Below, one piece after another: positions 7,508-42,648 of a DNA stretch of 42,648 nt. The DNA comes from a virus (lineage: Duplodnaviria > Heunggongvirae > Uroviricota > Caudoviricetes). The notes below the pieces were generated by a model. It did not search any database, was not told the DNA's origin, and saw only the letters and a program-made list of their open reading frames with translations. Both the position numbers and the translations under genes were made by a program. Each line of letters starts with the position of its first letter. Position 1 is the first letter of the stretch. The stretch covers positions 1-42,648 of IMG/VR virus record IMGVR_UViG_2563366978_000002; one strand, given 5' to 3'.

Positions 7508-7930
7508 TTACTCAACCAATGACGCTGCATATTCAATTAGGAATAACTTAGGTGCAAGCCAAATCTTCAACCATTCGAAATTGAAGGCAATAATTAAAAC
7601 ACCAATAATTGAGCCAAATATAGGAGCAAATACAGTGCATATATCGTAATAAAACGAAGATATAAAATATCCATCACTTGGACATCCATCGAAAGACGTC
7701 CATCTCTCGCCATTATTTCTTGCCGTTCTTGCAAAACTAGGAAGTTTCATTGCTGCAATTAAAAGCAACAACCCAGTCACTTGGAAAAGTGCGCTATGGA
7801 CAAAACTCCATATTAGCAACTGATGAACAACATCAGGAATCTGTGCCTGGCTAAATGAAACAGCAGCATCTATTCCATTGCTGGCTTTTTGCAGTAGTTC
7901 TACGAGAATCTTGTTTGCTTGTTCTTCCAT
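7508..7930 (-). CDS. Membrane protein, possibly SieB-like superinfection exclusion protein
   Basis: 140-aa ORF with at least two hydrophobic helices; position between N and cIII matches where sieB-type genes sit in lambdoid phages; assignment is positional only. Confidence 0.35.
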   Translation of the reverse strand: MEEQANKILVELLQKASNGIDAAVSFSQAQIPDVVHQLLIWSFVHSALFQVTGLLLLIAAMKLPSFARTARNNGERWTSFDGCPSDGYFISSFYYDICTVFAPIFGSIIGVLIIAFNFEWLKIWLAPKLFLIEYAASLVE

Positions 7931-7938
7931 ATATCACC

Positions 7939-8238
7939 TCAAATAAGTGGTTTGCTGCCTAATTTCATTTTCTGGCGACCAACACAAGTCACCCCCATTT
8001 CACTGCGTGGCTTGCGGTAGTAAATACGGTTCTGTTTACGCTCGACTTCATCTGCCTTCTTGCAGAGAAGGCTTCCGAGTGATGCTGCTTTGTCTGCTCT
8101 GACGCAACCAGAGAGCTTTAGCGCAATTTTTCGCGCCAGTCGCTGCTCTTGCATCGCCTGTTCACGTTGAGCCTGTCTGCGTGCTCTGCGGCGATTTCTG
8201 GCGTTATCGTCAGCCAGATATGTAATGACTACTGTCAT
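7939..8238 (-). CDS. N: Antitermination protein N (lambda N family)
   Basis: Arg-rich N-terminus (NARNRRRARRQAQREQ) and C-terminus ...RIYYRKPRSEMGVTCVGRQKMKLGSKPLI, closely resembling the lambda N C-terminus ...WYSKPGERGITCSGRQKIKGKSIPLI as recalled; GGAGG RBS. Confidence 0.85.
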   Translation of the reverse strand: MTVVITYLADDNARNRRRARRQAQREQAMQEQRLARKIALKLSGCVRADKAASLGSLLCKKADEVERKQNRIYYRKPRSEMGVTCVGRQKMKLGSKPLI

Positions 8239-8639
8239 GTTGACCTCCGATGAAACAACTTTGGAATTTTTTTTATTACAAAGTGGTTTCCTTCCCCGCC
8301 AATTAGACGGGGATGGAAGAGCATTTATGAGCCTTCATGGACTCTGCTCGATCAGTTCTATTTAATTAATATCTCAACTGAATGTAAGTATTCACATAAA
8401 TCCTCCTACCTCTTGTGCAGCTTTCTTGAATATGGTGGCGGCTGCATAACGCCTATGGAATTGACTTTGGCGATTGGATGGCCGGTGCTGAACTCCGGCT
8501 TACTGGTTAGAGCGCCCGCACTACCAGTGACGCTGTCTTGAGGCGCAGATTGGTTACTGCTTGCCATGAGCGCTGTTTATACATTGGTCGAGCATCAGCC
8601 TGCTCATTCATCCAATCCCAAAGCCAACTACTCTTTGGT

Positions 8640-8681
8640 TCCCGCATTTCGGCGGGACAATCCCATCAATGTTAAAGAGCC
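8640..8681 (-). promoter_or_regulatory. nutL (boxA GGCTCTTTAACA plus boxB hairpin TCCCGCCGAAATGCGGGA)
   Basis: Minus-strand reading gives a boxA-like element followed by an 18-nt hairpin that is identical to the one in nutR downstream of cro; lies about 40-80 nt downstream of the predicted pL. Confidence 0.65.
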
Positions 8682-8726
8682 TGCCAATCTGTTCCGTTTG
8701 GCTTCCAGCGTCCTGCTGATGGCTAA

Positions 8727-8813
8727 AGAATACTGTAGGTATTTTATTGTGTAAATACCCAAGGTATTTATTTTTGGTGAAATAATGATAAGCAAATGAA
8801 TACAAAGGATATT
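8727..8813 (-). promoter_or_regulatory. pL promoter and oL operators (three AATAC-N5-GTATT-type sites)
   Basis: Sites AATACTGTAGGTATT (8729..8743), AATACCCAAGGTATT (8754..8768), AATACAAAGGATATT (8799..8813); minus-strand -35 TTTACA and -10 TATTCT with 17-nt spacer overlapping the first two sites. Confidence 0.5.
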
Positions 8814-8899
8814 TATTTTTTCGGAGTCTGCTTGTTCAGTGCTTTTTATGCGGGATATGTGAAGTGGATCCCGATAGCTATTGCTGCCGGGATTATAGG

Positions 8900-9268
8900 T
8901 TAGTCAGCGAAGGTTAAGACGAGAATTACCTTAATGATGTCTGCTACAACAGACGCGGCCATAGATAAACCAAAGACGATCCAAGCCACAGTGATGTCTT
9001 CACTACCATCGTATAGAGTTCCGTAATCACTGGTGTAAGGCGTAAATGTCGCGCCTTGATACAATAGGTATAAGCTTGATCCATAGAGGATAAATGCAGA
9101 TATCCCTTGTATTGCTATGATCACCAGAATCATGAAACGAGCTGATCTATGCGCCCAAGCCTGGCTTATTTTTTCTGATAGAGATTTCGCAATAAAAGCA
9201 TGCGCTAAGCCGTAAATTGTCGAGATTGCCAACATCCCAAAAAAGCTTGCTATAGCGGTTCCAACCAT
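8900..9268 (-). CDS. Small polytopic membrane protein downstream of cI (rex position); candidate exclusion or abortive-infection protein
   Basis: ATG at 9268 preceded by AAGGGG, 18 nt after the cI stop; 122 aa with several hydrophobic segments; AT-rich coding sequence. Confidence 0.5.
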   Translation of the reverse strand: MVGTAIASFFGMLAISTIYGLAHAFIAKSLSEKISQAWAHRSARFMILVIIAIQGISAFILYGSSLYLLYQGATFTPYTSDYGTLYDGSEDITVAWIVFGLSMAASVVADIIKVILVLTFAD

Positions 9269-9285
9269 AATCGCCCCTTGCGTGA

Positions 9286-10002
9286 TCAAACCAGCCTTAG
9301 TTTTGTCTCAATTGCAACGCCTATAATCTTGCAGTTTCCATTGATTGGCACGAGAGGCCATGCAGGATTAAGTCCCTTGAGGTATTTATTTCCGCCGTCG
9401 ATTATCAGCTTCTTGAATGTTGCTTCGTTAGAGTCAGAAAGTTTTGCTATGACCAAGCTGCCGTTGATCGCCTCCCTTCCGGTATCGAAAAGAACGAATG
9501 TTCCCTCTGGAATGCTTAACCCAACCGGTGCCGTCATTGAATCACCTTCCACTTTAAGCCAGAACGCATTACCTTGAATATGCGCGTCAGACTCAAGCCA
9601 AACATCTATGTCTTTAATGGTGTATGGTTCGCATGCTTCACACCACGAGCCAGCCTGGATACTGCTTAACACCGGATACCTCTTTCCTGCTCTGTATTCC
9701 CCTGCATACCTTACGTTGGCATCGCTCTTAAGGCTTTCTGCCTGTTCTGCAACCTTGGCAGCAATTGACTGGCTAAAATCAGCAATTGAGACTTGCAACA
9801 AACGTGCAAAACCAGATGCGACCTCAACGTTTAGCGCGTTTCTGCCATTAAGATAATGCCCTACCGCTCCTTGGGTGATACCCAGTTCATCAGCGATTGA
9901 GTATTGGGTTATTCCCAATTCTTTCTTTTTTGACTCATACAAAGCCTTAAGCCGCTTAGCGTCTTCGAGCTGTTCTGTCGTCAGTGATTTTTTATTTTCC
10001 AT
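9286..10002 (-). CDS. cI: CI-type prophage repressor (HTH plus LexA/S24-like C-terminal domain)
   Basis: 238-aa ORF; N-terminal helix-turn-helix region (ITQYSIADELGITQGAVGHYLNG) and C-terminal S24 peptidase-like domain (VEGDSMTAP...); divergent from cro across an operator region. Confidence 0.85.
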   Translation of the reverse strand: MENKKSLTTEQLEDAKRLKALYESKKKELGITQYSIADELGITQGAVGHYLNGRNALNVEVASGFARLLQVSIADFSQSIAAKVAEQAESLKSDANVRYAGEYRAGKRYPVLSSIQAGSWCEACEPYTIKDIDVWLESDAHIQGNAFWLKVEGDSMTAPVGLSIPEGTFVLFDTGREAINGSLVIAKLSDSNEATFKKLIIDGGNKYLKGLNPAWPLVPINGNCKIIGVAIETKLRLV

Positions 10003-10035
10003 AGCTTAATTCTAATAGCTAAGGTACTTAAACTA

Positions 10036-10077
10036 AAAATACCCTGAGTATTGATTGCTTTGAATACCTGTAGTATT
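10036..10077 (+). promoter_or_regulatory. oR operators and pR promoter
   Basis: AATACCCTGAGTATT (10036..10050) and AATACCTGTAGTATT (10061..10075) match the oL half-sites; -35 TTGATT (10049..10054) and -10 TATTCT (10072..10077), 17-nt spacer, upstream of cro. Confidence 0.5.
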
Positions 10078-10108
10078 CTTTGTTCATGGTTAATAACGGA
10101 GAGTGCAT

Positions 10109-10303
10109 ATGATTCGAATGACACTTGCCGATTACGCCAAAATCCATGGACAGGCTAAAGCAGCCAGTGACTTTGGTGTAATCCAGTGCGCTATCAGCAA
10201 GGCCATTCTGGCAGGCCGTAACATTATGGTTACGGTAAAGCCTGATGGCAGTGTGATTGGAGAGGAAGTTCGTCCTTTCCCAAGCAACAAGAAAAACAAA
10301 TAG
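10109..10303 (+). CDS. cro: Cro repressor
   Basis: [62 protein letters not shown] closely resembles lambda Cro as recalled; GGAGA RBS 6 nt upstream of the ATG. Confidence 0.85.
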
Positions 10304-10309
10304 TAACAC

Positions 10310-10353
10310 CGCTCTTTAACAGTCATGGTCCTCATTCCCGCCGAAATGCGGGA
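10310..10353 (+). promoter_or_regulatory. nutR (boxA CGCTCTTTAACA plus boxB hairpin TCCCGCCGAAATGCGGGA)
   Basis: Canonical boxA-like sequence immediately after cro, then the same 18-nt hairpin found in nutL. Confidence 0.7.
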
Positions 10354-10411
10354 ATACAACGCGCATAAGTTGATGCGCATAACTTCTTATTAGTTAAGGA
10401 AATACTTACAT

Positions 10412-17829: not shown

Positions 17830-17904
17830 GGGTCAGTCGTATAAAGGTCATTACGGAAGGCTGTTAACCTTCTTATCGTGGTTCGAGCCCACGCTGTCCC
17901 GCCA
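17830..17904 (+). tRNA. tRNA-like gene, anticodon GUU (Asn) by manual fold; two stem mismatches
   Basis: Cloverleaf by eye: acceptor GGGTCAG/CTGTCCC (one T-T mismatch), D-arm with GG, anticodon stem GAAGG/CCTTC with loop CTGTTAA, T-arm CGTGG-TTCGAGC-CCACG, discriminator G, encoded CCA. Confidence 0.5.
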
Positions 17905-17909
17905 AACAT

Positions 17910-17985
17910 GCTGGTTTAGCTCCAATGGTAGAGCAGTCGCCTTGTAAGCGAATGGGTAGCGGTTCAAGTCCGTTAACCAGCACCA
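17910..17985 (+). tRNA. tRNA, anticodon UGU (Thr) by manual fold
   Basis: Acceptor GCTGGTT/AACCAGC, U8A9, D-arm GCTC-CAATGGTA-GAGC, anticodon loop CTTGTAA, T-arm AGCGG-TTCAAGT-CCGTT, discriminator A, encoded CCA. Confidence 0.7.
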
Positions 17986-34483: not shown

Positions 34484-34813
34484 TTAGTCATCCATGGATG
34501 GATTGAGCTTATCTCGTGTTGATGTGGCAATTTTCCCAACATTTTTCAACCAAGATTTTAAGAAGGATATGTCGTCCTTAATATCATGAATATCCTCATT
34601 CTTTATACGATCAACCTTATCCTCTAGGCTCTCTATAGAACGCTCAATGCTAGACAGAGAGATTTTTAAGTCTCCTTGATCACGTTCCAGTGAGGATTTG
34701 AGAGCACAATATTCGTTTTCTAGAATTCCTATTTTTTTTGTTAGAGAGTGCATTCGATACTCATACACCAAACCAGAAACGACTAATGCAGCCAACAGAA
34801 ACCATTCAAGCAC
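34484..34813 (-). CDS. Small membrane-anchored coiled-coil protein (moron; candidate exclusion/effector component)
   Basis: 109-aa ORF, GTG start preceded by AAGGGGG; N-terminal hydrophobic helix LEWFLLAALVVSGLVYEY then heptad-like region; AT-rich; 20 nt downstream of the YafO-like gene. Confidence 0.5.
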   Translation of the reverse strand: MLEWFLLAALVVSGLVYEYRMHSLTKKIGILENEYCALKSSLERDQGDLKISLSSIERSIESLEDKVDRIKNEDIHDIKDDISFLKSWLKNVGKIATSTRDKLNPSMDD

Positions 34814-34835
34814 ACTAACCCCCTTAGTTGATATT

Positions 34836-35255
34836 TTATTTGTATGAAATCAACGAGTTAAGCTCCCTCTCATTTAGAGATTGGAATCTTTTTTCAGTTA
34901 TATCAATGATGGCTGGCAATAGTTTTTTTACCTTCTCATGACCATCAGGTTTAATGATAGCAATGATCTGGATATGAATTGGATATGTGTTGTGTACCGC
35001 AAATATCAAAAAGTTATCGCTAACTCTACGATGTATTGGCGTTGTTTTTAACCAAGGATCATCTACTCCAGGGATCCTGATGTGCGACTTGTAAATTCCC
35101 GATAAGACGGCGTGATGGTTTCTCTCAAACCCACCAATCTTACCAAGATAAGCTGAAACGGTGCCTCTGTTTTTGTAGTTTGCAAGAGCCTTCGCAAAGT
35201 ATTGTTCTAATGGTCCAGCCGCTGCATCTACAACAATGCTTATGCGGTTTTCCAT
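34836..35255 (-). CDS. YafO-like putative toxin (ribosome-dependent mRNA interferase family) - tentative
   Basis: 139-aa basic protein; ...IHIQIIAIIKPDGHEK... resembles the ...LLIAILKPEPH... region I recall from E. coli YafO; start ATG lies inside the last codons of the upstream gene (translational coupling). Confidence 0.45.
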   Translation of the reverse strand: MENRISIVVDAAAGPLEQYFAKALANYKNRGTVSAYLGKIGGFERNHHAVLSGIYKSHIRIPGVDDPWLKTTPIHRRVSDNFLIFAVHNTYPIHIQIIAIIKPDGHEKVKKLLPAIIDITEKRFQSLNERELNSLISYK

Positions 35256-35839
35256 TTTGGTGCTTCCATGCCAAATCTTTTATGTGAATCTTCAACTGAT
35301 TTCTTGAATGAAGCCAACTCTTCTTCAGTGAACTCTTCAGGTTCAGCATATGATAGTGGTATGTGCTGCATTGCTAGCGTCACAAGCCCCATAGTTAGCC
35401 TTTTGTATTCTATAAAAGTATTTATTGAGTGGTTTTTCATTGTTGTAAGAGTTGACATATGGGGCTTCCACGCATCGCTGTTCTCAGCGATGAAGAAGGT
35501 ATACAACAGTTTCGCGATACCATAATCAAGCTTAGATATTTGATCGTTCAACATATCTACATCGTCATGTTGAATATCAAGTGAGGAAATATCTTCTTCC
35601 GTACCATTACTTAATATGTCAATGAATGTAATGTACTTTTTGCAAACTTCCTCTACAGGTGACATAACGCAGTAGATCTTGCTAAGAGCTTCAGAAGCCT
35701 GTTTTTTAGACAAAGAGCCGCTATGACTGCGATCAAAGTCTGAAATTGAACGCTCGATAGATGTTGATATGTCAGAAAAAACGTTTTCAATTTTTCCTGG
35801 CTCTTGATTCAGGATGGCCATAACGCCTATCTCAATCAC
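35240..35839 (-). CDS. Hypothetical acidic protein, upstream partner of the YafO-like gene (candidate antitoxin/immunity or sensor)
   Basis: 199-aa ORF (alternative ATG at 35821); no TM segments; 16-nt overlap with the downstream gene; 43 nt downstream of the mnt stop on the same strand. Confidence 0.5.
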   Translation of the reverse strand: MIEIGVMAILNQEPGKIENVFSDISTSIERSISDFDRSHSGSLSKKQASEALSKIYCVMSPVEEVCKKYITFIDILSNGTEEDISSLDIQHDDVDMLNDQISKLDYGIAKLLYTFFIAENSDAWKPHMSTLTTMKNHSINTFIEYKRLTMGLVTLAMQHIPLSYAEPEEFTEEELASFKKSVEDSHKRFGMEAPKWKTA

Positions 35840-36379: not shown

Positions 36380-36645
36380 AGGTGTCATTGCTTGATCGTT
36401 CTTTACAATTTTTGTCTGGCGCAATCATTGTAGTTTGCTTGCTCGTGATTTTTACATCGTTAATAAATATGTATCAATCAGGGGAACGATTGACAAAGAC
36501 GATAGAGGAAAAAAAATCAGTCTCAAATTACGAAGTATCACATGCACATAACGATTTAGTAGAAAGCCTTGACCGTATTAACAAGAGGCTTGACGAGACA
36601 AATATGCTACTTAAGCAAATTCAAAATGAAGTGGAAAAACGTTGA
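36376..36645 (+). CDS. Small membrane-anchored coiled-coil protein inserted between arc and ant
   Basis: 89-aa ORF with ATGA overlap with the arc stop; N-terminal hydrophobic helix (FLSGAIIVVCLLVIFTSLI) and coiled-coil-like C-terminus; AT-rich. Confidence 0.5.
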   Translation: MKVSLLDRSLQFLSGAIIVVCLLVIFTSLINMYQSGERLTKTIEEKKSVSNYEVSHAHNDLVESLDRINKRLDETNMLLKQIQNEVEKR

Positions 36646-36675
36646 AGCCCCAACTGCGGGAACAGTCAGGGCTTC
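36635..36675 (-). terminator. Minus-strand intrinsic terminator, candidate 3' end of a sar-like antisense RNA
   Basis: Minus-strand hairpin GAAGCCC...GGGCTTC followed by U5 (plus-strand AAAAA at 36635..36639); located just upstream of the ant start on the opposite strand. Confidence 0.4.
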
Positions 36676-36708
36676 GGTATCGTAAAACCACGCATAGGAA
36701 TTAACGAC

Positions 36709-37732: not shown

Positions 37733-40438
37733 ATGACAGACATTACAGCCAATGTTGTAGTGAGTATGCCTTCGCAACTCTTCACTATGGCGCGTTCTTT
37801 TAAAGCCGTAGCCAACGGCAAAATTTATATCGGAAAAATTGACACTGACCCGGTAAATCCTGAAAACCAGATTCAGGTTTATGTGGAAAACGAAGACGGT
37901 TCTCAAGTTCCTGTTTCTCAACCAATCATCATTAACGCTGCTGGTTACCCGGTATATAACGGACAGATTGCCAAATTCGTTACCGTGCAAGGCCATTCTA
38001 TGGCTGTTTACGATGCTTATGGCACTCAGCAGTTTTATTTTCCAAATGTATTAAAATACGATCCAGATCAGTTTGGCCCAGACTTCAAAGAGCAGTTATC
38101 TCAATCAGGAGCATACATTAATGATGATTCAAAAGGTGATGCATTAATTGGGGTAAGGCAGCCATTTACCGGGGCTGTAACTATAACTCAGCATGAAAAC
38201 AATGCTCTTTTCTTAAATGTAAAACAATTTGGAGCAATTGGGGATGGGAAATATCATCCATTATCTGAGTGGTTTTCTTCAATTTCTGAAGCAAAATCCT
38301 TATATCCTTTTGTTGACTCATTATCTCAGTCAATAGACTGGGCCGCGTGGCAAGCTGCCCTTAACACAGGAAAGGTTATTTATGGTACTGATAATGCGTA
38401 TGTAATAACGGATACGTTAACACCTGTTTCTGGTGGTGGGATAATTTGTCTTGGTGTGGGCAAATGGGTCTCAGGATATACTGCAACATTTGCTCCTGAT
38501 ATTACCACAGGGACCACATTCCTGATGTACGGGGTAGGAAATAAAAAATATACTGTAGATTGTGTTTCTAATATGGATGTTAGTGGTGGTGTGGTTTCTA
38601 ATCCATCTTCCGAAGACCCGTATACAACAACGGCACCTGCGTCATCATATGATTTATTGGATTTTACTAACGGTGATGCTAATGGGACTACAAGAGCCAC
38701 GCTTAAACCATTCTCTGCCGCAATATTGATGCCTGAGACAGGATGTGTTCGCCTTGAGAACTTTCGTGTTGTTCCATATTTCAATGGGCTGGATGGTTAT
38801 AAAGACATTGCAAATACCGGTCTTGGCGATGAGTGGGATGTAGGTATTTGGTCACGTGCGTCTTTTGGCAATGAATACCGCAATTTGCAGGTGGTTGGAT
38901 ACTGGCGCAAGACGGCACTTTTAAAAACGAACATTCCTGTATCTGGCACGCTGGCCGCTCAGGGCGAGGATGAAAACTATTATCACTGTAGATTCCAGGG
39001 ATTCAAGGGTATTTCGATCCGCGCCCATGATGTATTCCGAATTACAGCGGTAACGTCCAGCACTATCGAAATCCCATGGTCAGCAAGCCACACCTTCGAA
39101 ACGTCCGGGGTTTTAAGATCTGGAGGCAGGAATTTCACTTATTCAGGATTATCCGTATCCGGTGATAAGTTAGTATTTACTGGAGTGTCTAACGCTTCTG
39201 AGGCAACAGTAGGTTCTACTATACGGCGAAATGACATAGATAACTTTGGTATGGCGGGAACGCAATTTTTCGATTGCTACATTACCAGCCTGTATCACCA
39301 CACACATCTGCTTGCCACATCGCAATACCTGTCTCAACCATTCAGCCGACCATCAGAGTGTATGGAGGTTTCAGGGGAACCAGTTCGCGGTGTACAGGTA
39401 CATGCAGGAACCATTCAGGGATGGGATGATGTTCTTATTCATCTACATGACTGTGGAAATATGAACTTTTACAGTACATATTTCGAAAGCCAGCAAGCAT
39501 ATGTAACTATAAATGGTGGTAATGCTATTGGTTATGGAGCACGTATGATAGCTTCCCGGCAATCAACAAGCTCATTACCATATGCAGCAGGGAATACTCG
39601 AGTGCTTAGAATGGTCGGGTGCTCTGAAGGCAATGGCGTTGACTGGGGTCCTGTATTTAACAACTATACAGGAGGAAGATATAATTCTGGAGACGGTGTA
39701 TTTAACCCCCGCGATGCATTTATAGACCATAAATCTCTTCCTGAGCAGTCAGGAGGTGAGTCAAGACTCGTATCACAAAAAGGAAATGCCAGAGTAGTAT
39801 GTGGTGTTGGTAAAACTGTACTGCTTGGACCAACGTCAGGAGATTGTAATTTACAGAGTAATACTGGAAGTTTAAATATTAGAAGTGGGATAAGAGTAAG
39901 AATCGGTCACGCTGATGGAACAGACTGGTGGTTGGCAGATGCTAATAAAATAGCTCCTGTTGATGATAATGTTAAAGCTATTGGACAGCCATCAAACAGA
40001 TGCTCTGTTATTTATGCAGGAACCGGGTCAATCAATACATCAGATGAAACTCTTAAAACAAGATATGATATTCTTAATGCAGAGCGTGATGCCGCTATTG
40101 AAATAAAGTCAGTCATCTATAAATTTAAATTTAATGACTCAATTAATCACAAAGGAATTGAGTCGTCTAGGTATCATTTTGGCGTTGGCGCTCAAACCGT
40201 AGGGGATATTCTTAGAAAGCATGGTTTAAACCCTGAGCAATATGCTTTTTGGTGTTACGATGAATGGCCTGACGTATGGGATGAAGAGGTGATAACTGAA
40301 GAGAGCACAGATCCTGATACAGGTGAGAAAATTTATTCTCAATATAAAACAGGAGATATGATTCTTGTAAAAAAAGCAGGAGGACGCTACGGAATTCGTT
40401 ATGACGAATTGGCTATGTTTATATTAATGGCAATGTAG
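37733..40438 (+). CDS. Tailspike: P22 gp9-like N-terminal head-binding domain, distinct central receptor-binding domain, C-terminal autoproteolytic intramolecular-chaperone-like domain
   Basis: 901-aa ORF; first ~110 aa ([56 protein letters not shown]...VLKYDPDQ) match the P22 tailspike head-binding domain as recalled; last ~132 aa begin with SDETLK, resembling the Ser-Lys cleavage motif of chaperone domains. Confidence 0.85.
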
Positions 40439-40932: not shown

Positions 40933-41409
40933 TTAACTAAACATCGCAGTAATCGAGGCACTCGCCAGAGAGTGAAAATGAACGTTAAACCCGACCATCG
41001 CGCCGCTGGCACCTTCATCGACATCAATACGTTCTACATCCAGCGCGTGAACGGTAAAAATGTAGCGATGGGTTTCGCCTTTCGGCGGCGCTGCGCCATC
41101 GTACCCGGTTTTACCAAAGTCGGTACGCGTCTGCAAAACGCCGTCTGGCATAGCTACCAGACCAGAGCCAAACCCTTGCGGTAATACGCGGGTATCAGCG
41201 GGTAAATTAACAACTACCCAGTGCCACCAGCCGGAGCCGGTTGGCGCATCCGGGTCATAGCAGGTGACAACAAAACTTTTCGTTCCCACAGGAACATCAT
41301 CCCACGCCAGATGCGGTGAAATATTATCGCCATCGTAACCCATGCCGTTAAAGACATGACGATGCGGCAGCTTATCGCCATCGCGCAGATCGTTACTGAT
41401 GAGTTTCAT
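40933..41409 (-). CDS. ybhB: YbhB, PEBP/RKIP-family protein; host gene flanking lambda attB
   Basis: 158-aa ORF MKLISNDLRDGDKLPHRHVFNGMGYDGDNISPHLAWDDVP... matching E. coli YbhB as recalled. Confidence 0.9.
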   Translation of the reverse strand: MKLISNDLRDGDKLPHRHVFNGMGYDGDNISPHLAWDDVPVGTKSFVVTCYDPDAPTGSGWWHWVVVNLPADTRVLPQGFGSGLVAMPDGVLQTRTDFGKTGYDGAAPPKGETHRYIFTVHALDVERIDVDEGASGAMVGFNVHFHSLASASITAMFS

Positions 41410-41517
41410 TAGAATGCCTCCGGGAAACCTCGGCCTTCAGACCGGGGAGGAAAGGAGGCGGTTTTCCGACTAACTGTACTTTGCATAATCACATTTTCCT
41501 CTTTAGTATGTGAACAC

Positions 41518-42648
41518 ATGAAACGCGCATATAAATACCGGTTTTACCCGACAACTGAGCAGGCTGAGCTTTTAGCTCAGACGTTTGGCTGTGTGCGCTT
41601 CGTCTACAATTCCATCCTTCGTTGGCGTACCGATGCGTACTACGAGCGAAAAGAAAAGATCGGTTATCTACAGGCCAACGCTCGCCTTACGGCGCTCAAA
41701 AAAGAGCCTGAATACATATGGCTGAATGATGTTTCCTGCGTTCCCCTCCAGCAGTCGTTGCGCCACCAACAAGCCGCCTTTGCTAACTTCTTTGCCGGAC
41801 GAGCTGCATATCCGGCTTTCAAAAGCAAACGGCACAAACAGGTGGCTGAGTTCACTGCCAGCGCGTTTAAACACCGTGACGGCGAGTTGTATATAGCAAA
41901 GAGCAAGTCGCCGCTGGATGTTCGCTGGAGTCGAGAATTACCATCTGCGCCGTCAACCGTTACCATTTCCAGAGATAGCGCTGGCAGGTACTTTGTTTCC
42001 TGCCTGTGTGAGTTTGAACCTGTATCAATGCCTGTTACCGCTAAAACGGTCGGCATTGATGTGGGCTTAAAAGATTTATTCGTCACCGATACCGGATTCA
42101 AAACCGACAATCCCCGCCACACCGCTAAATATGCGAAGCGATTAACGCTGCTACAGCGACGTTTAAGCAGGAAGCAAAAAGGCTCAAGAAACCGTATTAA
42201 AGCCCGCTTAAAGGTCGCCCGACTCCACGCGAAAATCGCCGATTGCCGGATGGACAATCTGCACAAGTTGTCCCGCAAACTGATTAACGAAAACCAAGTT
42301 GTTTGCGTCGAATCCCTCAAGGTGAAAAACATGATCCGCAACCCGAAGCTGTCTAAAGCAATAGCTGACGCAGGCTGGAGCGAACTTGTTCGCCAGCTCC
42401 AGTACAAAGGCAAATGGGCCGGGCGGTCAGTGGTCGCCATTGACCAGTATTTACCGTCCTCAAAATGCTGTAGTTGCTGCGGTTTCACCATGCAAAAAAT
42501 GCCTCTTAATGTTCGTAAATGGCACTGCCCTGAATGCGGCGCAGACCATGATCGCGACATTAACGCGGCACGTAATATTAAAGCTGCCGGGCTGGCAGTG
42601 TTAGCCCACGGAGAGCCTGTAAACCCTGAATCGCAGCACGCGGCTTAG
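41518..42648 (+). CDS. tnpB: IS200/IS605-family accessory protein TnpB (OrfB; RuvC-like RNA-guided nuclease family)
   Basis: 376-aa ORF with OrfB N-terminal region (MKRAYKYRFYPTTEQAELLAQTFGCVRFVYN), RuvC-like core and C-terminal zinc-finger CxxC...CxxC (CCSCCG...CPECG); stop codon is the last 3 nt of the window. Confidence 0.85.
   Translation: MKRAYKYRFYPTTEQAELLAQTFGCVRFVYNSILRWRTDAYYERKEKIGYLQANARLTALKKEPEYIWLNDVSCVPLQQSLRHQQAAFANFFAGRAAYPAFKSKRHKQVAEFTASAFKHRDGELYIAKSKSPLDVRWSRELPSAPSTVTISRDSAGRYFVSCLCEFEPVSMPVTAKTVGIDVGLKDLFVTDTGFKTDNPRHTAKYAKRLTLLQRRLSRKQKGSRNRIKARLKVARLHAKIADCRMDNLHKLSRKLINENQVVCVESLKVKNMIRNPKLSKAIADAGWSELVRQLQYKGKWAGRSVVAIDQYLPSSKCCSCCGFTMQKMPLNVRKWHCPECGADHDRDINAARNIKAAGLAVLAHGEPVNPESQHAA

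Follow-up and report, generated by a model that had tools for sequence, protein, structure and literature searches.

The open reading frame (ORF) at positions 8900–9268 (minus strand) of a 42,648-nt Caudoviricetes sequence (IMG/VR record IMGVR_UViG_2563366978_000002, positions 1–42,648; hereafter the window) is, by sequence comparison, the hkaS gene of phage HK620 (GenBank AAK28867, annotated 'unknown'), an already known and uncharacterised gene which had not been recognised as such in an earlier, sequence-only reading of the window. Sequence conservation shows hkaS to be a genuine coding gene that is maintained by purifying selection, far less constrained than the adjacent repressor gene cI, and it very probably provides the lysogen with a membrane protein. 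A role of this protein in excluding superinfecting phages is proposed tentatively. Taken as a whole, the window is a P22-like (Lederbergvirus-type) prophage of mosaic composition, with CUS-3, 611R6 and HZ41 as its nearest relatives.

Identity and occurrence of hkaS

The window copy is about 98 % identical to hkaS of HK620 (98.3 % by tblastn), and the surrounding DNA (8617–10400) is 99 % identical to this phage. HkaS matches phrog_6534 over its full length (residues 1–122 of 122; E 9.7e-79), a family labelled 'unknown function'; hmmscan against 38,880 PHROGs (E ≤ 1) yielded, besides this family, one weak amidase match (E 0.18) and nothing else. Gene order (cI, hkaS, OL/pL, N) is the same in HK620 and the window, whereas the flanking genes of the pL operon differ, hkaP and hkaQ being absent from the window. 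The window's HkaS allele and the commonest IMG/VR allele are set apart by a single residue change (A105V).

Overall, hkaS was detected in 16 phage records, among them HK620, HK630, HK140, mEpX2, HZ41, phi296, phi367, 611R6, HF4s and two Stx2c-converting phages, in 113 IMG/VR contigs, and in 146 out of 5,426 complete E. coli genomes (~2.7 %), where all copies are chromosomal and adjoin a LexA/S24 gene. A word-indexed search of 5.8 billion proteins revealed 12 clusters of homologues from E. coli, Hafnia and Salmonella (52–97 % identity), and no confirmed locus was found among the 185,579 species-representative genomes of GTDB. The backbones carrying hkaS are of podovirus (P22-like), siphovirus (lambda-like) and Stx phage type; since their virions differ, hkaS moves together with the immunity module rather than with a morphogenetic one. 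The HkaS family is very narrow, and hkaS is an accessory gene of the HK620-type immunity module that is confined to this family. A literature search retrieved no paper on the function of hkaS.

Gene structure and linkage to cI

The ORF (ORF call and sequence comparison) extends from an ATG at 9268 to a TAA stop at 8900–8902 and encodes a protein of 122 amino acids (aa) and 13 kDa. Upstream on the same strand, cI (9286–10002, minus strand) encodes the 238-aa repressor, identified by its HTH_3 and Peptidase_S24 domains (Pfam E 5e-24 and 8e-10) and by the HK620 annotation. Its TGA stop (9286–9288) is separated from the hkaS start by a spacer of 17 nt (9269–9285), the ATG beginning at the 18th base past the cI stop; the coordinates, strand and length of the gene and its distance of 18 nt from the cI stop had been given correctly in the sequence-only reading. 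Within the spacer, a Shine-Dalgarno sequence, AAGGGG (9274–9279, minus strand), was read from the sequence 5 nt before the ATG. In four lineages, an AAGG motif stands at equal distance from the hkaS start, the remaining spacer sequence being different. A TTG-started version of 129 aa (8900–9289), the TTG of which overlaps the cI stop, was dropped: divergent homologues have an in-frame stop immediately before the ATG, which identifies the ATG as the conserved start.

Linkage to cI was checked in the window, HK620, HK140, HF4s, the Salmonella, Hafnia-type and metagenome lineages, and the IMG/VR loci. Each hkaS homologue examined is located 17–20 nt behind an HK620-type cI, with the AAGG Shine-Dalgarno motif retained; downstream of it come a hairpin, OL/pL and N. 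In 79 of 79 IMG/VR loci the cI directly upstream of hkaS is at least 99.6 % identical.

That a real gene is present is shown by several lines of sequence evidence. HkaS homologues remain 50–82 % identical across all 122 residues without any indel, the ratio of nonsynonymous to synonymous substitution rates (dN/dS) is 0.14–0.2 where synonymous sites are unsaturated, and hkaS is intact in 80 of 80 IMG/VR copies. Identities across the deep lineages amount to 86–96 % for cI, 81–95 % for Cro and 50–82 % for HkaS. Within the E. coli sample, 17 synonymous and 22 nonsynonymous segregating sites were counted in hkaS, versus 33 and 6, respectively, in cI. The density of synonymous segregating sites is equal in both genes (4.6 per 100 nt), and nonsynonymous polymorphism is about 7 times denser in hkaS (Fisher p = 3e-4 for the difference in ratio).

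Two homopolymer runs are present in hkaS, an A6 run (9170–9175, codons 32–33) and a T6 run (9236–9241, codons 9–10). The HF4s copy is truncated by a 1-nt deletion in the A6 run, and in the database variants P0006, P0007 and P0009 the N-terminal part is out of frame, with the frame regained near the same run. These frameshifts may represent homopolymer sequencing errors or real slippage.

Operators and the predicted immunity transcript

The operator palindrome AATAC-N5-GTATT was detected by pattern search at five sites in the window, compared with 0.96 expected by chance. Three of them locate in the left operator (OL) region (8729–8743, 8754–8768 and 8799–8813, the third being consensus-like with one mismatch) and two in the right operator (OR) region (10009–10078, no strand; HK620 annotation transfer and palindrome search). 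The latter two (10038–10052 and 10063–10077) form the cores of OR2 (10037–10053) and OR1 (10062–10078), respectively, both transferred from the HK620 annotation; the position of OR3 (10013–10029) derives from annotation transfer only. On the left, the OL operators together with the leftward promoter pL (8727–8813, minus strand; pattern search, promoter scan and HK620 annotation) mark the downstream boundary of the cI–OL slot, pL itself reading TTTACA-17-TATTCT (8755–8727, minus strand; promoter scan). The far side of the cI–N interval is formed by the first gene of the pL operon, encoding the N antiterminator (7939–8238, minus strand; phrog_271, E 4e-36; HK620 and HF4s annotation). Transfer of the HK620 annotation places nutL, pL and OL directly downstream of hkaS and OR3–OR1 directly upstream of cI. 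The gene is thereby placed between cI and OL, in the slot of rexA and rexB in lambda; this assignment by the sequence-only reading is supported by the operator palindromes and the lambda layout. The operator-like site at 8799–8813 falls inside the terminator tIMM of the HK620 record, and the position given there for OL3 (window 8775–8791) departs from the operator consensus. Both HK620 annotations, OL3 and tIMM, may need revising.

A promoter scan detected no promoter-like site in the 17-nt cI–hkaS gap or within hkaS, and a terminator scan no terminator-like site after cI on the minus strand. Co-transcription from the maintenance and establishment promoters of the repressor (PRM and PRE) is therefore the natural reading, and the earlier operon logic, in which hkaS belongs to the repressor transcript, holds at the level of sequence. 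From this architecture, hkaS would share the PRM transcript of cI in lysogens and the PRE transcript while lysogeny is being established, and it would be translated from its own ribosome-binding site. A candidate −10 hexamer of PRM (TAGAAT, 10009–10014, minus strand), found by reading of the sequence, lies 6 nt before the cI ATG; it overlaps OR3 and adjoins OR2, as in the PRM arrangement of lambda. Its position suggests a near-leaderless cI–hkaS message.

Downstream of hkaS, a stem-loop (8868–8893, minus strand) starts 7 nt past the stop codon (folding energy −13.7 kcal/mol, z −2.4) and probably represents the 3' end or a stabiliser of the immunity transcript. A hairpin is present 3' of hkaS in all four lineages (4/4), including the divergent loci L004, L008 and L010, at 7–25 nt after the stop and with z from −1.8 to −5.6. 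The hairpins of the Salmonella and metagenome lineages are unrelated in sequence to that of the window, and the Hafnia-type hairpin resembles it. A U tract is absent from the hairpins of all four lineages, and the terminator scan made no call at 8868–8893; because the U tract is missing, the structure would fit a stabilising element at the 3' end, or an end that depends on a termination factor, better than a classic intrinsic terminator.

A hydrophobic 35-aa ORF on the plus strand (8796–8903) runs head-on into hkaS, overlapping the stop codon of the latter; its conserved start overlaps the operator-like palindrome, and it carries the label 'putative phage protein' in HF4s. It was considered as a type I toxin-like partner of hkaS and rejected, as the frame stops after 3–12 codons in the Salmonella, Hafnia-type and metagenome lineages. 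This ORF is probably spurious.

Features of the HkaS protein

Three hydrophobic segments are present in HkaS (residues 3–27, 45–70 and 94–120), with Kyte-Doolittle 19-residue means of up to 1.7, 2.3 and 2.2, respectively. Loop 1 (residues 28–44) contains four Lys/Arg residues, and loop 2 (71–93) contains four Asp/Glu and no Lys/Arg, from which an N-out/C-in topology is inferred by the positive-inside rule, with the basic loop 1 in the cytoplasm and the acidic loop 2 in the periplasm. HkaS lacks Cys residues, a lipobox and a charged N-region and hence is not a lipoprotein or a secreted protein that is cleaved. An AlphaFold2 model, built on a 7-sequence alignment, reached a mean predicted local distance difference test (pLDDT) score of 91.9 and a predicted template modelling (pTM) score of 0.78; it comprises helices at residues 2–29, 31–38, 41–73 and 89–121, and its periplasmic loop contains a short beta-hairpin. 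The polytopic membrane protein with several hydrophobic helices postulated in the sequence-only reading is thus recovered as three segments by hydropathy and three long helices in the model, and the topology prediction that had been suggested as a check points, on hydropathy and charge bias, to a three-pass protein with N-out/C-in orientation.

Conservation across the divergent lineages is distributed unevenly. The C-terminal 13 residues (D110-x-x-K113-x-ILVLTFAD) are 77 % invariant and the cytoplasmic loop 53 %; the distal periplasmic loop, the least conserved segment, is 7 % invariant across the deep lineages. Four polar positions (Y19, Q54, D110 and K113) are invariant and would be buried about equally deep, towards the cytoplasmic side of the membrane, and the first transmembrane (TM) segment, TM1, displays a conserved ladder of small residues, G3-x3-(A/G)7-x3-G11. 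Together, the polar set and the TM1 ladder hint at oligomerisation and a functional intramembrane polar site. Diversifying selection acting on this periplasmic loop was considered as well; no clear signal of an arms race was obtained, as the loop hardly differs between the window and the Hafnia-type lineage (82 % identical).

Comparison with known systems

Lambda RexB spans the inner membrane several times, as predicted for HkaS, and its gene likewise lies between cI and OL, on the same strand as cI. RexB is expressed in lysogens from PRM and excludes T4 rII and other phages through depolarisation of the membrane. RexB consists of 144 aa with four TM helices, HkaS of 122 aa with three. While rexB has rexA as its partner, hkaS lacks one, the cI–hkaS gap measuring 17 nt and no RexA homologue being present in the window. 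Comparison of HkaS with RexB by hhalign resulted in a probability of 0.7 %, and neither Pfam nor PHROG returned a RexB match at E ≤ 1. The earlier view that the protein is not obviously RexB can thus be put more strongly: HkaS is not RexB and, apart from position, agrees with it in none of the respects that could be tested.

Pairwise hhalign comparisons with further candidates yielded similarly low probabilities: 0.3 % for P22 SieA, 0.05 % for P22 SieB, 0.14 % for SieB-like HkaP of HK620, 0.4 % for the class I holin gp13' of P22 and 0.4 % for the neighbouring membrane protein encoded at 7508–7930. Of the remote-homology check suggested in the sequence-only reading, the RexB and SieB profiles were negative; Imm-type proteins were covered through the PHROG scan, likewise with no match, T4 Imm and HK97 gp15 having been judged by this profile scan in place of pairwise comparison. 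No homologue of SieA, SieB, RexA or RexB was found across the whole window (tblastn for RexA), and a PDB sequence search with HkaS returned zero matches.

P22 SieA, T4 Imm and HK97 gp15 share with HkaS the design of a single small polytopic membrane protein of the resident phage, devoid of a soluble domain. The genomic settings differ in that P22 sieA resides in immI beside ejection-protein genes, and hkaS is bound to the repressor gene. P22 SieB and HK620 HkaP represent an exclusion function of lambdoid phages that maps, as hkaS does, to the left arm near the immunity region; their genes, however, are located on the opposite strand beyond N, possess their own promoter and are absent from the window. 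Class I holins (lambda S, P22 gp13) have only the three-helix N-out/C-in topology in common with HkaS: they carry a charged C-terminal tail and belong to the lysis cassette, whereas HkaS ends in LTFAD, lacks a basic tail and is encoded in the immunity region.

The closest positional counterpart in a P22-like prophage is bstA of Salmonella prophage BTP1, likewise an accessory gene directly downstream of cI. It is thought to use the repressor promoter (PMC8585504), and the cI promoter is among the most active prophage promoters during lysogeny (PMC8585504). BstA itself is large and soluble and localises to phage replication sites (PMC8585504), whereas HkaS is a small membrane protein and has no match among the PADLOC models. 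The cI–N interval was described by the BstA authors as a mosaic hotspot (PMC8585504). The cI–OL slot is occupied by rexAB in lambda and by bstA in BTP1 and is empty in P22 and CUS-3, which indicates that its contents are accessory.

Proposed function

On the grounds of position and protein type, some form of phage exclusion, as suggested in the sequence-only reading, is the likeliest role of HkaS, with prospects slightly short of even; that it acts more specifically as an entry block against superinfecting phages, of the kind represented by SieA, Imm and gp15, is a tentative proposal by analogy and more doubtful than exclusion as such. HkaS would insert into the inner membrane in N-out/C-in orientation, probably act as a homo-oligomer, and shield the lysogen from superinfection by heteroimmune phages at the stage of infection that involves the inner membrane, most likely by obstructing genome translocation across this membrane, as do P22 SieA, T4 Imm and HK97 gp15. 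To our knowledge, the characterised single-gene small inner-membrane proteins of prophages (Imm, SieA, gp15 and lactococcal Sie2009) are all entry blockers, and it is because of this precedent, together with the lack of a sensor partner, that an entry block is favoured. The reading agrees with the presence of defence cargo in the cI–OL slot elsewhere (rexAB in lambda, bstA in BTP1) and with the deposition of HF4s as a phage genome despite its frameshifted hkaS copy. Moreover, since the prophage has no SieA, SieB, RexA or RexB homologue, the exclusion niche is otherwise unfilled.

Several observations weigh against an entry block. The best-conserved parts of HkaS, the C-terminal 13 residues and the cytoplasmic loop, face the cytoplasm, and only about 23 residues are periplasmic, which is naively unexpected for a protein meeting incoming phage parts there. 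Both characterised occupants of the slot, RexAB and BstA, are abortive-infection systems and not entry blocks. Unlike SieA and gp15, which are encoded beside related virion genes, hkaS is linked to immunity type and not to virion type. Homology to known defence proteins is also lacking: Pfam gave only sub-threshold matches due to TM bias (Cation_ATPase_C, 17 bits versus a cut-off of 27.3; TssN, E 0.057), NCBIfam and PADLOC-DB 2.0 zero matches (E ≤ 1), and fold searches with the HkaS model generic helical bundles only. Among 1.84 billion representatives clustered at 50 % identity, an exhaustive profile search recovered no relatives outside the family, its two hits both belonging to the family itself.

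Part of this evidence is shared with the main rival, a RexB-type abortive effector operating without RexA, in which a latent HkaS oligomer channel would be opened by a phage cue via the cytoplasmic loop and the C-terminus, depolarising the membrane and thereby aborting the infection. Such an effector would suit the slot shared with both characterised abortive systems, the invariant intramembrane polar and charged residues (Q54, D110 and K113) next to the TM1 small-residue ladder, and the cytoplasmic location of the most conserved surface; linkage to immunity rather than to virion type is what a generalist defence might show. It is nonetheless unlikely, given that homology to RexB is missing (hhalign 0.7 %), that HkaS has three helices instead of four, and that neither a sensor gene in the operon nor a RexA homologue in the window was found. 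Furthermore, a protein of 122 aa with almost no soluble part leaves little room for a sensor, and self-immunity would be needed upon induction of the own prophage, for which nothing points to a mechanism.

Next in rank, and rather unlikely, is a lysogenic conversion unrelated to phages, by which HkaS would alter host physiology or act as an orphan immunity protein to pore-forming colicins, microcins or membrane-acting effectors of contact-dependent inhibition (CDI) or type VI secretion systems (T6SS). Immunity proteins to pore-forming colicins are comparable in size, three-helix topology and constitutive low expression; the carriers of hkaS are gut E. coli, Salmonella and Hafnia prophages, in whose environment such toxins abound, and the gene occurs on unrelated phage backbones. 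On the other hand, HkaS matched no colicin or bacteriocin immunity family of Pfam at E ≤ 1, no toxin gene is located near hkaS, and the strict linkage to one cI type would lack an obvious rationale.

This linkage could be accounted for if HkaS were the founder of a new class of single-protein membrane defence, either as a sensor-less, stand-alone counterpart of RexB directed against heteroimmune phages of any virion type or as a membrane-anchored modulator linking the envelope state to the cI switch. While such a reading would explain why, on podovirus, siphovirus and Stx phage backbones, hkaS always accompanies one and the same repressor type, we consider it distinctly unlikely.

A modulator of lysogeny, tuning the stability of the repressor, induction or establishment, e.g. 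via a membrane protease such as FtsH/HflKC, is very unlikely. Precedents are found in phage 434, where hex, co-transcribed with cI, stabilises lysogens, and in RexB, for which an anti-proteolysis activity has reportedly been observed. The occurrence of hkaS with only one cI type, in four lineages and 79 of 79 IMG/VR loci, as well as the conservation of the cytoplasm-facing parts would be in line with this role. The 17-nt gap may, however, render the linkage to cI purely physical, HkaS changes much faster than cI or Cro, unlike a tightly co-adapted partner, and P22 and CUS-3 do without any gene in the slot. Finally, that hkaS is a conserved but untranslated or functionless ORF is highly improbable, since the frameshifted copies (HF4s; P0006, P0007 and P0009) and a fairly high within-population ratio of nonsynonymous to synonymous polymorphism (pN/pS) are countered by full length without indels down to 50 % identity, dN/dS of 0.14–0.2, the conserved Shine-Dalgarno sequence and 80 of 80 intact IMG/VR copies, the frameshifts residing in homopolymer runs and possibly being sequencing errors.

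Other features of the prophage

Directly after N, at 7508–7930 (minus strand), lies the gene for a 140-aa protein that has hydrophobic helices and belongs to phrog_3054 (unknown function); HF4s labels it 'TM helix-containing protein'. This gene has a very low GC content (37.8 %; 30.5 % at third codon positions, GC3), compared with 47 % for the prophage. It occupies the place of hkaQ and SieB-like hkaP in HK620 and represents a second uncharacterised membrane-protein cargo gene. Between nutL and N, about 360 bp (8254–8616) have a poor or no match to HK620; a 53-aa ORF therein (8406–8567, minus strand) has no family match, and HK140 has a 41-aa ORF annotated in the same interval.

An immI-like region was identified at 34484–35839 (minus strand), and sar antisense RNA at 36640–36707 (minus strand; Rfam 80.7 bits). 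At the place of sieA in P22, a gene for a YafO-family type II toxin is present (34836–35255; Pfam E 1e-11), flanked by an overlapping 199-aa ORF upstream and a 109-aa ORF with a hydrophobic N-terminus downstream. Two adjacent tRNA genes locate inside the prophage (17830–17982, plus strand; Rfam tRNA 53 and 61.5 bits). At the right end of the window (40933–42648), beyond a 901-aa ORF (37733–40438), a PEBP-family gene (40933–41409, minus strand; Pfam PBP E 1e-41) is followed by an IS605-type OrfB/TnpB gene (41518–42648, plus strand), which runs off the window end.

Conclusions

HkaS is a third, unrelated occupant of the cI–OL interval, after the abortive systems RexAB and BstA. The cultivable K-12 phages mEpX2, HK630 and HK140 carry the tiny hkaS gene, so that testing is cheap. 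If HkaS were without effect on phages, hkaS would be ordinary prophage cargo; should it exclude phages, the small-membrane-protein defences would gain a new sequence family, and the plating of phages on lysogens would be affected. The known, uncharacterised hkaS belongs to a familiar sort of prophage cargo and is of value as an inexpensive, clearly delimited candidate from which a new family of prophage defence at the membrane might be established.

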